DNA of 64,000 nt from a virus: the IMG/VR virus record IMGVR_UViG_3300027809_000005, one strand, 5' to 3'. Made by a program: the position numbers. Each line of letters starts with the position of its first letter. The first letter of the stretch is position 1. Shown here piece by piece: positions 33,001 to 39,000 of the stretch.

Positions 33001-36000
33001 ACTGAACATTACACACGAAATGGCAACTAAAGGTACGTGGTATGCAGAGGTACTGCCAGTAGAAGAACACGAGGAGGGGTATTAAGTGGAAAAAGTAGTA
33101 TACACCCGTTTTTACATGGGTAGGTTAAGGCGGTATAGGGTTCTGTCAGAGACGCTTACCCATGTATACCTACAGGACATGGATGGAAACACAGGTAGGT
33201 TTAATGTTACTCACGAGTACTTAAAAGAACACTATACAAAGAATGTTAGGGAGGAAGATTAAATGGGATTTTCACTGGCACAAGAAATTGCACAGATCAC
33301 TTTAAATAGTAGCACAAAGGAAGAGGCAGTAGTAGCGGTTCTTCGATTACTCTCTAAAGAATACTACCTTATTAGTGGTTCTCCTGCAAATGAAGCACAT
33401 AAAGAACTGCTAACCAAACTAGACCTGTTTAACACACCGATTCCTAGTAGAGTAGAAAGCATGCTTAGCCTGCGTAAGATTGAGCATGACATGAATATGA
33501 AAGTTGTTAGTAGCTCTGTACAAGAGAACTACGGGTCAAGCGCTACTGTAATCGAAAGTAAGAAGGTTGTGTATCAAAATACCCGAGCAGAAAAGGTGTT
33601 TGTTATTAAAACTCCTCAAGGCTATCTAGAGGACGTATGGGAGCACTTAAGCGATGAACCTACTAACTATAGCTTTACGAGTAGTATCGATCAAGCGTAC
33701 AAGTTCTCTACTAAGCCCCTAGATATTAAGGCACCAAAGTACCTGTATAATATTGAAACGGGAGAATCGATTAATACCTTAGCAGCTGCCGCTGATTATT
33801 TAAACGGAGTTCTACAGCCTGTAGAGGTAACAGAAGTTAAAATATACTCTACTGACCAAACTAAAGGAGGAAAAGTAAATGCAGTTAAATAATCAAGTAA
33901 TCCAGCGTGTATGCTATGCAATAGGTGAAGTTGCCGTAAAACATGAAGTGGGCAATGAGCATGTAACACGTATTATAGTGCGCGAAGCTATAAATAGTGG
34001 GGGATATAAAATAAGTGTATACGAGGACAACGATACAGTGTCAACCCCTTCTGTTGTTGTTCTAACAAATCAAGTAATGATCGAGTATAAACGAAAGCAT
34101 CACGAACCTGTGGGGTTAGACTTATGAACGATAATCTTATGGATAAGCTAAAAGGAGTGCAGTTCTGTACATGCGGTAGTGAGCAAAATAAAGTCCTTCA
34201 GAATGTAACTACCCGGTATAGAGGTAAGCATATACGTATAGAGAGTGTACCATCATTAGTATGTCTACGCAATGATACACATGTAACACATACTATGCGG
34301 ACAAGACGTAACATACGTAACCTCCTTAGTATAGCCTATACGAATGATTGGGCTCACATACTATATAGAGAGATAGGAAACGTGTAGAGAGAGTATAGTA
34401 GGCTTTATAGTCTACTGTAACTTTTTTTTTAAATATCTATTGACTATTAGACAAGGGGATGCTATACTAGGTTTATAGCTAAGATACAGACAAGCACAGG
34501 GGAGGGGAGTTACAGTGAGTGATAAGCTACATGATACAAGCCGTTTAGAATTAATGGAACATGAAGATGCTACAGTGTATGACATCGGGGGAATGATGAC
34601 TGTAACCATGAAAGAGGGGACTGATGGTTTCCACGGTCACTATTCTAGAACTGGAAGCAATGCAGTTTACACGTTTGATGGACAAGGAATGACTCGTAAG
34701 CAAATTATTAAGACTTTTTGGGACTCGATTAAGGACAACCCAGCAGGAGGTGAGTAGGTGGCTATAGTAACCGGGCAGTTGAATCTTCCTCCACCGCTTA
34801 GTAACAAAGAGAATAAGGAACTATTCAAAGTGTACGAGCTGGATAGAGAGGATACAGAGTTACGTGACAAGATTATAGAGGGTAACATGCGACTAGTCAT
34901 ATACATAGCTAGAAAATTCCATAATACTGGGATACCTCACGATGACTTAGTTAGCATAGGTACATGGGGTATGATGAAGGCAGTAAACACGTACAAAACG
35001 GATAAAGCTACCAACTTTGCCACTTACTCTACCCGCTGTGTTGAAAATGAAATCCTTATGTACTTGCGGAAACATAATAAACATGCTAAAGTAAAATCCT
35101 TGGACACAGTCATTCATGACAGTGGTACCGGGAGTGAGTTAACCCTAGAGGACATGATAGCAGACGAGAACATTGAACCTATGGATAATTCTTTCGTTAA
35201 AAATGAAGATAGGGAGGATGTATACGAAGCTATGCGTGAGGCACTGACTGAGGATGAGCGGAAGATAGTAGAGACTTACTTCCTCCAGAATCTTCGTCAG
35301 TCCGGTACCGGCAAAGCTCTAGGGATATCTCAATCCTACGTGTCTAGGTTGAAAAATCGATCTGTTAACAAGATCAAGAAGTATATTAACAAGAAGTACA
35401 GAGATGGCAGTCTCAAGACTAATACGATGGGTGAACGTATTCAACCTATCAAGGAAACTGAGTTAGTTAAGCCAAAAAATATTATAGAACCTAGGGAGGA
35501 AAATAATATGAGTAATTACCAACGTTATGCAGGGATGGAAGTACGTAGCCAAGAGGAATGGGAAGCTATTAAACTAATTGAAGAGACTAGAATGGGATAT
35601 AAAGAGATTGAGGAAAAGACTGGTGCTCAGTATACTCGTATTGCCGCTTTTGGTAATAAATTACGATCTAAGTCACTGCGTAAAGATATTCAACGTGAAG
35701 TAGCTCGTAAGAATGCTGCCCGCACAAATGAAGTAAGACAGGCTAATAAGGAAAAGAAACAAGCAGTTAACTCACAGATTCAAGGTAGTAGACCAGCGGC
35801 TAATCCGGTACCACCTATGGGGGTTAAGCCTACGTTCCCGGGTAAGAACTTTAAACCAGAGAACTTAGTACAGACTGCAGCAGCTAACCCAGTGCCGCAG
35901 GAACAAACAACCCTAGAACCTTGGGAAGAAGCGCTAGACCAAGTGTATATGCCATCTAAAGCTCCTAGTAGCTCCCTAGGGAGCGATCATGTAGAGGCAG

Positions 36001-39000
36001 CAGCCAAAGCCTTAGCAGACCTTAAACAAGCTCAGTTCGAGGCGTTTAAGGCTAGTGTAGAAGACACACTTAAAGCTGAAGATAAGCCTGTTGAGTTTGA
36101 TGGGTTAAGCAAGATGGAGCCAGAACTACCTGACTTTGAACCGATTCACCAGTTAGCGGACGAGATTGCTGAAGAAGCTAAAGAGAAAGCTAAGAAAGGT
36201 ACTATCCAGCGTAACATGTACATCAATACAGAGCTTAGCGGTGAAGATATCCCATTGCATATCTTTATTAATGAAATAGAAGAGCTGCGTGATCTTTTAC
36301 TAGGTGCTGGGGGAGCTAACGTAAACTTCTCATTAAAAGTTACAGCCACTCAAAAGTAAGTATACAGAAAAAGAGGCTAAAAATATAGTCTCTTTTTTTT
36401 TATAAATATATGTTGACTTGTGGTTAACAGTCTGCTATACTAAGAGTATACCAATTGAGGGGGAAGTTAAAATGAAATACTTACCAGCGCCAAAGCCAAA
36501 ACCAGATCGTTCACACTATCCTGTATTTGTAGACTATATCGAGACCGCAGTACCATTAGATATATCGGATGAAGCGGTTATGAAGATAGCAGATAATTTA
36601 AAGAATATCTATAGGGAGTCAAAGAAAGATAAAAAATAGCTGTTGACTCTTGGTTAACAGTCTGCTATACTAAGCATATACCAAATGAAGGAGCTGTTGC
36701 TACATGGAAGAAACAATGGAAATGTTTGATAGTGTGCTTAAAATTCTACAGAGTGATTATAAGTATGTTCCGCTAACTAGAGAGCATGCTATTCAGATGT
36801 TCATAGACTTACAGGATGAGTTGGAAGGTCACTTTGAGTTAGACGATGTCAATATTAAAATGGATGGTTATACTGGCACCAGCATTTACGTTACAAACGG
36901 TCAGGAAGAGTTCATGATGACTATTCGTGCAGACAATAAAGGATACTTTGGTAATGTTTCGTGGGATACTAAGAAGTTCGTAGAGCTCTATACAGAGGAG
37001 GAACCGGCATGACTATACCTAACTATATGGAAGTTGAAAAGTTATTATTAGAAGCGGGTGTAGCTCCGGGAGATATCGCTGTTACAGTCCTTGATTACTT
37101 TATGGGGCTAGCGGCTATAGATGCAGGAGAGCAGCCTTCAGAAGGTGAATGGGACGCAGTAAATAAAGTAGAAGGAATTATGGAGGGTTAATCAGTGGGA
37201 ATTAGATACAGTATGAACTTAGAAGAACTAGTAGAAGTATTAAAGGAAGTAAAGAAGGTGTGTACAATTGATTATGTAAAGCCTCAGTTTCATTCAGAGA
37301 CTGGGATGATAACTGCAATTACTTTCTCAAATAGAAAGTTAGTACACACGATCAGTGTACTAGACATAGTTATGGGTGACCAGAGCCTATACGAAACAGT
37401 CTTAATGTACTTAAAAGAAATGCAGATAAAAAGTAAAAATATCCATTGACTTTAAATCAACAGTGTGCTAAACTAAGAGTATACCAAATGAGGGAGGAAT
37501 AACAAATGAGATCGGAAAAAGATATTATGAAGAAGATAGGCTACATTACAGAAAGAAAGAATTACTGGAAGAACAGGTTAGACGTAATAGCGGAAACAGG
37601 GCAGGATAACACAACCGCATATCATACTTATAGATACTGGGCGGCACAGGAAGCAGCACTAAAATATGTAGTAGGTCTTCAGGATTCACTAGTTATTCAA
37701 AACTAAGGAGGAACTGGAAATGGAAAATGTTATTGATAAACTGATTAGAGAGGTGCAGCAGTATTCCTTGCAAGACATCCATATAGTAGCTGAGCAGAAT
37801 CGAAAGAGAATGCAGGCAGCTATAGTAGCTTCAGAGCTTAATGAAATAATTATTCATGATAGGCTTACTAACTCTATTACTCAAGGTAGTTCCCGGTGAG
37901 TTAGCAGCTCACTGGTTCATATAAATTAAAATAAAACATTACTAGGGGGAAATTAGAATGATGATATTCGGTGTGTTGGTGGGGTTAGCTGCATTAGTGA
38001 TCTTTGTATTAGGTATTAAGAAGTTAGTAGGTGAAAAGAAGAAGGCTGCACTGTTCCTGATACTATCTACCTTCTTGGCATTCATGGGTGCAGGGTTCAT
38101 TGCAGTAGGTGCTGGTGATAACATACAGGAAGAGGCAGCTGTTACTAGTAGCTCACCAGACGAAGATAAGCCAGCCGCTAAGGAAGATAAGGAAACAGAA
38201 GTAGCTCCTCAGCCAGAAGAGAAAGAAGAAGTAGCTCCCGAGCCTGAGCCGGAGCCAGAACCCGAAGTAGTGTTAGAACCTGTTACATTAGGTACAGGTA
38301 CATTTGTAATCGGTGATGACATTCCAGCAGGACGTTACACAGTTAGCACTCAAGAACGCGGAGGTAACTTCTACACTTACGATAGCTGGGGCTTACTAGA
38401 TGTTAATGAAATGTTAGGAACTGCTCCAGACTACTATGTAAATAATATTACTATAGAGCTAGAAGAAGGCGGACAAATTGAAATTAGTGGTCTTAACCAA
38501 GTGTTATTTACACCTAAGTAAACTCGACTATGGTATAATTAGTTAACTTATAACAGCCCGTTATCCGGTGATGTAACTAGTCCCGGGTAGCGGGCTTTTT
38601 ACTTAGTAGCTCCCTGTACCGATCAGTGAAATGCCCTAGTAGCTCCCTGCAGAGCGGGGCGGGCTGCCGGGCAGGGTACGAGGCAGGCACCGGAAAGATT
38701 TTTGTTTTCTTTATATAGGAAGAAACACGGAATTATAAAAAAGTTTTAAAATAGTGTTGACTTTCTGTTAACCGTCCTCTATACTTAAGGTATACCAATA
38801 AGGGAGATGTTGACAATGACAAAAGAATCTATTATCACATTAGCAAACAAAGGCGGCTTTATCACTTCTAAAGAGTATGAATGTTTTGCAGACTTGGACG
38901 GACAGCATGCAAAAGAATTTTTAGAAAGTAAAGGATTTACTGTTGCATTTAATAAAGATACGGGTTATAATGGAATTGCAGTTACAACATGCGGCATACA

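Follow-up and report, generated by a model that had tools for sequence, protein, structure and literature searches.

A phage gene predicted to encode a SigE-like sigma factor without a pro-sequence and, from a nested start, its helix-turn-helix partner

Why should a phage carry a mother-cell-type sigma factor that is joined to a second module, and does such a gene give rise to one protein or to two? The question is raised by an open reading frame (ORF) at 34758..36359 on the plus strand of IMG/VR virus record IMGVR_UViG_3300027809_000005, of which we analysed a stretch of 64,000 nucleotides, hereafter called the window. A previous sequence-only reading of the locus had proposed a SigE- or SigK-like sigma factor lacking a pro-peptide, a frame that stays open for about 300 residues after region 4, and an in-frame Shine-Dalgarno (SD) sequence and ATG from which the C-terminal part could be made as a free protein. 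On balance our comparisons favour an explanation in which this is an early two-protein gene, encoding a processing-independent SigE-like sigma fusion together with a free partner made of a helix-turn-helix (HTH) and a C-terminal domain (CTD).

The N-terminal part of the protein, the sigma head, is of the sporulation type. Both Sigma70_r2 (52.7 bits, cut-off 24, residues 40-108) and Sigma70_r4 (35.8 bits, cut-off 24.1, residues 162-208) exceed their Pfam gathering scores, which places the protein in group 3 (sporulation-type) of the sigma-70 family. The NCBIfam models rank SigE first (175.9 and 165.8 bits), followed by SigK (160.1 and 150.0 bits) and, far behind, the SigF/G models (82-102 bits); none of these scores reaches its equivalog cut-off. 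With residues 1-215 as the query, thousands of bacterial proteins were matched, and among the best 120 every named protein is SigE, at 42-49% identity; the SigE/K-like assignment of the sequence-only reading therefore stands. Being encoded by a phage, with SigE and SigK as its best families, the protein fits the phage sporulation-like sigma factors in the sense of PMC9429907. In the alignment, the phage proteins and bacterial SigE agree at the residues of regions 2.4 and 4.2, and Gln192, in the segment GISQSY, aligns with the glutamine of SigE for -35 specificity and is likewise invariant. In all SigE proteins a glutamine recognises the -35 specificity determinant, where SigK has an arginine (Eichenberger et al., PMC517825). 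From these matching recognition residues, a SigE-like promoter preference would be expected.

In the host, pro-SigE and pro-SigK require proteolytic activation (PMC517825). Residue 4-5 of the protein is the first to match the SigE hidden Markov model (HMM), at model position 31 of 241 (25 of 234). When aligned with named bacterial SigE proteins, the phage N-terminus falls at the '..YVGxxxxLPPPLS' block, and the bacterial proteins are longer by ~25-38 residues at the N-terminus. The start codon is GTG 34758, with AGGAGG lying 7 nt 5' of it, and the TAG at 34755-34757 shuts the sigma frame directly upstream, so that a longer N-terminus is impossible. Taken together, the position of the N-terminus, the beginning of the HMM match and the closed frame show that a pro-sequence is absent, as had been read from the point at which homology begins. 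Because the pro-sequence is missing, the sigma head should be active independently of SpoIIGA. An in-frame ATG at codon 159, which follows an SD-like string, was considered as a start and rejected because it lies 14 nt from that string and in a structured region. As a separate observation, four metagenome ORFs (P0013, P0014, P0015 and P0018, 482-512 aa) each encode a single product with both a Peptidase_U4 (SpoIIGA) and a SigE domain; these may be true spoIIGA-sigE fusions or gene-calling artefacts.

Is the fusion of this sigma head to what follows it a genuine feature? By sequence comparison the window belongs to a Herelleviridae phage of the Bastillevirinae, with spore-forming Bacillaceae as its probable hosts. 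Its closest record is phage f2b1 (81% nucleotide identity), whose 546-aa protein shares 80% amino acid identity over its full length, followed by Goe8 gp090 (461 aa) and then by Eldridge gp169 and Moonbeam gp165; the relatives of the window infect Priestia megaterium and other Bacillaceae. The host labels on two Bastillevirinae genomes, f2b1 (MN940411, 'Staphylococcus aureus') and Xoo-sp15 (MN364664, 'Xanthomonas oryzae', UNVERIFIED_ORG), look doubtful; the relatives of both all infect Bacillus or Priestia.

The frame extends for ~318 residues beyond region 4, close to the length first estimated, and this extension is kept in relatives. It is unbroken in P0002-P0004, which are close homologues from independent metagenome assemblies, in P0005 (identical to f2b1), Goe8, Eldridge gp169, Moonbeam 165, 010DV005_109, SBSphiJ6 and P59_168, and in eight metagenome genes. 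A search of 1.84 billion representative proteins with a profile of the C-terminal part retrieved 24 proteins, most of which are sigma proteins of 384-605 aa with the same tail, and the sole match of an IMG/VR scan with the module was the Goe8 equivalent; P0171 (1441 aa) was discarded as a spurious coiled-coil match. The tail is found behind SigE-like heads (the window, Goe8, P0151 and P0161, all starting at SigE model positions 31-37 and hence without a pro-sequence) as well as behind SigF/G-like heads (Eldridge gp169, 010DV005_109, P0164 and P59_168), which indicates that sigma and module are functionally linked. Between the window and f2b1, the ratio of non-synonymous to synonymous substitution rates (dN/dS) reveals purifying selection in every segment, including the linker of 35 codons at the junction.

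Could the long frame nevertheless have arisen through sequencing or assembly error, or be a mutation private to this metagenome contig? The window does derive from a plant metagenome assembly, but isolated phages and independent assemblies carry the same frame without a break, and the junction is under purifying selection; the comparative data refute this reading, which we regard as vanishingly improbable. The sequence-only reading had proposed to look for a stop codon between the two parts in orthologues. Six close and more distant orthologues are unbroken, and the fusion is not refuted by them. More distant Bastillevirinae (Bcp1_201, BSP9_065 and Xoo-sp15_219) carry a separate module gene, which marks the module as an independent unit rather than the fusion as an error.

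The module is in fact widespread as a gene of its own. In more than 40 complete Bastillevirinae genomes it is a separate gene of 137-164 aa belonging to phrog_8794, located directly 3' of sporulation-type sigma genes; examples are BSP9_065, Xoo-sp15_219, Bcp1_201, phiNIT1 orf137 and the corresponding genes of Grass, SPG24, Deep Blue, JBP901, BCP8-2, Bc431v3 and BM15. These free-standing proteins match the phrog_8794 profile from end to end (E 1e-47 to 1e-67). Residues 251-533 of the window protein match it with E = 4.3e-12 over profile positions 4-81 of 159 only, which is the HTH part; a profile built from the clade of the window finds the CTD of other members, and verified phrog_8794 members align with the CTD of the window. 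At the Bcp1_200/201 junction (L019 2180-2217) just 1 nt separates the stop codon of the sigma gene from the ATG of the module, whose GGAGG lies within the last codons of the sigma gene, so that a small insertion or deletion would yield the fused form. Nitunavirus shows both states within one genus: the syntenic locus holds two genes in BSP9 and the fused gene in 010DV005 and SBSphiJ6. CTD-less sigma+HTH genes and the free module gene share the same operons. In the window no second copy of the module was found; consequently, if the phage needs the free protein, the start at 35508 is its sole source, and the separate genes of the relatives suggest that such a need exists.

The SD at this start looks functional. 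As had been noted from the sequence, AGGGAGG at 35493-35499 precedes by 8 nt an ATG that is exactly in frame at codon 251 (MSNYQRY), and the arrangement is kept in every fused relative examined. The SD duplex energy at 35508 is -10.8 kcal/mol, compared with -8.7 to -12.6 kcal/mol at real gene starts of the window and -5.6 kcal/mol at one of them, and 11 of 319 other in-frame start-like codons (3.4%) reach -9 kcal/mol. All fused genes for which DNA was at hand, 16 in number (the window, f2b1, Goe8, Eldridge gp169, Moonbeam gp165, 010DV005_109, SBSphiJ6_192, P59_168, P0151, P0152, P0159, P0161, P0162, P0164, P0166 and P0167), have an in-frame start 8-19 codons before the first HTH, with SD energies of -9.2 to -12.4 kcal/mol and a spacing of mostly 8 nt; the start codon is ATG, or GTG in three of them. 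None of the four sigma+HTH genes without a CTD (Eldridge gp168, Moonbeam gp164, BSP9_064 and Xoo-sp15_220) has such a start. Met251 aligns with the N-termini of the free-standing homologues, the 80 nt around 35508 are A/U-rich and weakly structured (minimum free energy -7.7 kcal/mol, z +0.47), and resampling of synonymous codons gives a combined p = 0.005 over 12 lineages. The promoter scan found no internal promoter 5' of the ATG, its sole candidate (35608-35636) being 3' of it. Since the module has retained its own ribosome-binding site and in-frame start, two proteins are to be expected from the locus, and we consider it probable that both the 533-aa fusion and a free 283-aa HTH-CTD protein are produced.

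What kind of protein would the module be? A three-helix HTH with the motif xxAIxLLxxTxxTYxEIxxxTGVxxxTVxxLxxxHRPxxVR occurs in it one to three times, followed by a basic helix, a variable linker that is Pro-rich in the window, a second conserved helix and a CTD of ~55 aa, in which a glycine and a phenylalanine are invariant in 26 aligned sequences. In the AlphaFold2 prediction from the 26 sequences, the predicted local distance difference test (pLDDT) score is above 90 for the HTH, 83-93 for the two long helices and ~84 for the helix of the CTD. The architecture that the sequence-only reading had sketched, an HTH-like segment, a Pro-rich linker and a C-terminal fold, is thus recovered for the HTH and the low-confidence linker, and for the C-terminal element in part, its helix being formed and its strands not. 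Sub-threshold Pfam matches to HTH_23, Sigma70_r4, Sigma70_r4_2, HTH_28 and Trp_repressor occur in 7-12 of the 26 members. Searches with the module gave nothing at E <= 0.001 with Foldseek against the PDB and no Z >= 5 with VIA-align, and what the fold searches returned were generic HTH domains (Tc3 transposase, KorA, sigma region 4) and single helices. A sequence profile search of the PDB reached a best E of 0.07, to generic HTH regulators, and a feature search of the ESM Atlas gave 'hypothetical protein' clusters only, below 0.9. Two specific identities for the HTH were rejected: no Pfam SpoIIID match was found among ten HTH segments, which leaves a SpoIIID-like mother-cell regulator without support, and a duplication of sigma region 4 is supported by an hhalign probability of 27% over 25 columns, at which homology is not demonstrable.

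We therefore propose the following scheme. A SigE-type sporulation sigma gene would have been joined to the phrog_8794 gene that usually follows sigma genes in these phages, with the ribosome-binding site and start codon of the latter preserved and brought into frame. The locus would then give a long protein, the 533-aa sigma-HTH-CTD fusion from GTG 34758, and a short one, the 283-aa HTH-CTD protein from ATG 35508. The head, lacking a pro-sequence, would be active without SpoIIGA and, in whichever cell the phage infects, steer host RNA polymerase to promoters of the SigE type. The module would bind DNA through its HTH and associate through its helices and CTD, and we infer that it is a DNA-binding, self-associating partner of the sigma factor.

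Several observations weigh against this scheme. The equivalog cut-offs of SigE are missed (175.9 against 339 bits and 165.8 against 348.6 bits, for the pair NF006158/TIGR02835), so that SigE is the best-scoring family and yet the protein, scoring below the cut-off and lacking the pro-sequence, is not a SigE equivalog. SigE-, SigK- and SigG-type promoter motifs are not enriched over shuffles in the window, and no target promoters can be named; the window is part of a ~160-kb genome and holds mostly early genes, which limits such scans. The starts of P0163 and P0165, examined as free-standing module proteins, are 22-29 nt away from contig ends, and the frame upstream of them is open; these two were not counted and are probably truncated fused genes called at the internal start. 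No structural or Pfam relative of the CTD was found, and AlphaFold2 forms no β-strands in it, as if it were unfolded as a monomer; this suggests that the CTD folds only together with a partner. As to the internal start, the synonymous-codon tests fall short of significance gene by gene (p 0.02-0.6), and Lys, Glu and Gly, the codons of which yield SD-like strings, abound in the linker. Moreover, four relatives have a second recurring in-frame SD and ATG before the CTD (P0151 M455, P0152 M498, P0161 M356 and P0166 M341, at L009, L010, L011 and L015) within the motif E-M-x-E-x-S-x-A-x-Q-T-S; the window gene is without this site, which is one more nested start or else shows that linkers rich in Glu and Lys generate SD-like strings.

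On the last three points one could build the view that only the 533-aa fusion matters, the internal SD and ATG being an inert leftover of the ancestral downstream gene and any short product incidental, or else a by-product of a Lys/Glu-rich linker with a conserved methionine, possibly at an inter-domain ribosome pause site. Purifying selection on linker and module is also what one would see if both were parts of the long product. Against this stand the presence of the site in every fused gene and its absence from the CTD-less ones, the nearly constant spacing of about 8 nt, the retention of the start codon across heads that share only ~25% identity, the combined codon test, the position of the methionine at the N-terminus of the free-standing homologues and the accessibility of the site. 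In addition, Bacillus ribosomes generally start at such SD and ATG sites. We therefore judge an inert relic to be unlikely. Quite another possibility is that the module is a negative regulator, which would mask the sigma head in cis and, as the free protein, act in trans as an anti-sigma factor or competitor, for example on the same DNA or RNA polymerase surface, thereby limiting or timing sigma activity. The weak alignment of the HTH with that of sigma region 4.2 (the hhalign result above, and Pfam Sigma70_r4 and Sigma70_r4_2 in 7-9 of 26 members) would agree with such a role, as would a possible excess of the short product, which has an ATG and a strong SD in open RNA where the long one has a GTG. 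Sigma factors with fused C-terminal regulatory domains are, moreover, known from extracytoplasmic function (ECF) groups. However, the module has no similarity to any anti-sigma family in Pfam, PDB-sequence or fold searches, and CTD-less sigma+HTH genes occur together with the free gene in the same operons. Furthermore, when full-length ELDg169 (Eldridge gp169) was induced in B. subtilis, more than 400 sporulation genes were turned on and the spore yield was cut by 99% (PMC9429907; Schwartz, Lehmkuhl and Lennon 2022); that sigma factor is thus not silenced by its extension. The cloned Bcp1 fragment bcp25,26 does not include the module gene next to it, and expressed in vegetative cells it blocks host sporulation (Schuch and Fischetti 2009, PMC2716549). 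For those sigma factors and in those assays, the module thus does not inhibit completely, nor is it strictly needed. These data speak weakly against an anti-sigma role, and the negative-regulator reading as a whole appears improbable, somewhat more so than an inert relic.

A further alternative concerns the targets rather than the products: the protein could be a developmental sigma factor for the middle or late genes of the phage itself and no means of manipulating host sporulation, its SigE descent being incidental and the HTH-CTD module helping to find phage promoters. Phages of this group time their own genes with phage sigma factors (PMC9429907, discussion), the head has diverged to half of the SigE cut-off and the module is phage-specific. 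On the other hand, the recognition residues are nearly identical to those of host SigE, SigE/K-like motifs are not enriched in the part of the genome that the window covers, and the sporulation-like sigma factors tested to date are dispensable for lytic growth (PMC9429907). We see this alternative as possible though doubtful. Returning to the two-protein scheme, a stricter version can be formulated, in which the two products form an obligate unit. The short HTH-CTD protein would pair, by way of the helices and CTD that both have, with the identical tail module of the fusion to give a DNA-bound dimer with a single sigma head, which would license or tether the pro-sequence-free SigE-type holoenzyme at specific sites, and this would be common to the SigE-like and SigF/G-like mimics of Bastillevirinae, ELDg169 included. 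We offer this version tentatively and would not expect it to hold in full. If true, a nested, co-translated and self-matching partner would be an undescribed mode of sigma factor control.

The features of the locus are collected in Table 1. The sigma gene is the second of a two-gene unit, and the SigA-type promoter ahead of the unit would make it an early gene transcribed by the host SigA holoenzyme. Promoters at 36413 and 36643, 3' of the sigma gene, have the same form. The contact between the 80-aa ORF and the sigma gene at 34755-34760 suggests translational coupling. The same abutting layout is present in f2b1 (L001, MN940411, 4758-5000 / 5001), and read-through of the TAG would give the sigma factor 81 more residues. 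The SD of the sigma GTG start (AGGAGGUG) is able to pair with CUUCCUCC, which codes for LPPP 30 nt downstream (window 34745-34793); compared with shuffles this fold is not stronger (z +0.93).

Table 1. Positions of the sigma gene, its predicted parts and the flanking signals in the window
Feature	Position	Strand	Basis or remark
Terminator-like hairpin with T-run, closing the upstream unit	34394..34419	+	terminator scan
SigA-type promoter, TTGACT-17 (TG)-TATACT	34440..34468	+	consensus match alone
80-aa ORF, phrog_2399 (function unknown), gene 1 of the two-gene unit	34515..34757	+	in the sigma frame, its TAG abutting the sigma GTG
Whole ORF, predicted long product of 533 aa: sigma head, linker, HTH, helices and CTD	34758..36359 (stop codon 36357-36359)	+	phrog_351 covers residues 13-529
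SigE-like sigma head without pro-sequence, residues 1-215 (region 2 at 40-108, region 4 at 162-208)	34758..35402	+	Pfam, NCBIfam, alignment
Linker, residues 216-250, in the long product only	35403..35507	+	dN/dS 0.07 against f2b1
Internal SD, AGGGAGG, 8 nt before ATG 35508	35493..35499	+	
Nested in-frame ORF, 283 aa, predicted short product	35508..36359	+	homologous to free-standing phrog_8794 proteins
Three-helix HTH ('HTH2'), residues 265-302	35550..35663	+	pLDDT above 90
Long basic helix after the HTH, residues 305-343	35670..35786	+	AlphaFold2
Pro-rich variable linker, residues about 344-408	35787..35981	+	low confidence, pLDDT below 50
Second long conserved helix, residues 409-441	35982..36080	+	pLDDT 83-93
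CTD, about 55 aa, pattern G-x-I-x-R...F...G..V....F..EL......L......V-x-F-x-L-x-V-x-A	36189..36356	+	alignment
7-bp hairpin with T-run 3' of the stop codon	36372..36401	+	seen by eye; no call by the terminator scan

Elsewhere in the window, a second sigma gene (263 aa, 5576-6367, plus strand) is of the SigB/F/G type (158 bits with a subfamily model), resembles the N-terminus of Eldridge gp168 and is without the HTH/CTD extension. The motif scan picked up a SigG-type promoter site at 16340-16311. Minus-strand sites at 48807, 27630, 21610 and 16338 share ATA-N16-18-CATACT, and two of them share ATAACTTTT; there is no overall enrichment, and a sporulation-type sigma factor might use these sites as a minor class of promoters.

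How does the gene compare with known systems? Sporulation-like sigma factors of phages have been described before (PMC9429907, PMC2716549, PMC10294663), and those tested are SigF/G-like. B. subtilis SigE, which is made as pro-sigma E and cut by SpoIIGA, is the best HMM and BLAST relative, with nearly identical regions 2.4 and 4.2 and the short region 3 that is typical of SigE/K. The phage protein differs from it by the lack of a pro-sequence, by reaching half of the equivalog cut-off and by its 318-residue C-terminal extension, and the phage gene lies behind a SigA-type promoter with no spoIIGA nearby. Eldridge gp169 belongs to the same subfamily and shares the order of sigma, HTH and CTD as well as the internal SD and ATG, but its head is SigF/G-like (309 bits with the SigF/G subfamily model) whereas that of the window is SigE-like; the text of PMC9429907, in which the term 'C-terminal' never occurs, mentions neither such an extension nor a second product. 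Bcp1 bcp25,26 are also sporulation-type phage sigma factors of this subfamily, but SigF/G-like and unfused. The phrog_8794 proteins Bcp1_201, phiNIT1 orf137, BSP9_065 and Xoo-sp15_219, annotated as 'sigma factor' or 'DNA binding protein', have the homologous HTH and CTD; unlike these products of separate genes that begin after a stop codon, the module of the window is fused in frame and is longer through its linker. Our literature searches found no published description of the module or of the nested start.

Among sigma factors, ECF41 and ECF42 are an example of a regulatory domain following region 4, although they belong to a different sigma group and their domains are unrelated to those of the window gene; ECF sigma factors that carry such fused domains are not known to give a nested second product. 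A single ORF that yields the full-length protein and, through an internal SD and start, its C-terminal part is found in CheA (long and short), IF2 (alpha and beta) and lambda C/Nu3. None of these three involves a sigma factor, and for the window gene, in addition, related genomes encode the nested product on its own.

Of the ways in which phages interfere with bacterial dormancy, the carriage of sporulation sigma factor copies is the best documented, and the cases studied to date are of the forespore type and have been treated as plain sigma factors. To these the locus adds a mother-cell-type, SigE-like copy without the pro-sequence, the feature that keeps host SigE silent until the forespore signal, and a conserved partner module that lies adjacent to these sigma factors or is fused to them with its own start kept. 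If the nested product is real, the published ELDg169 experiments expressed two proteins and not one, and the module would be a missing component in models of how these phages rewire host transcription.

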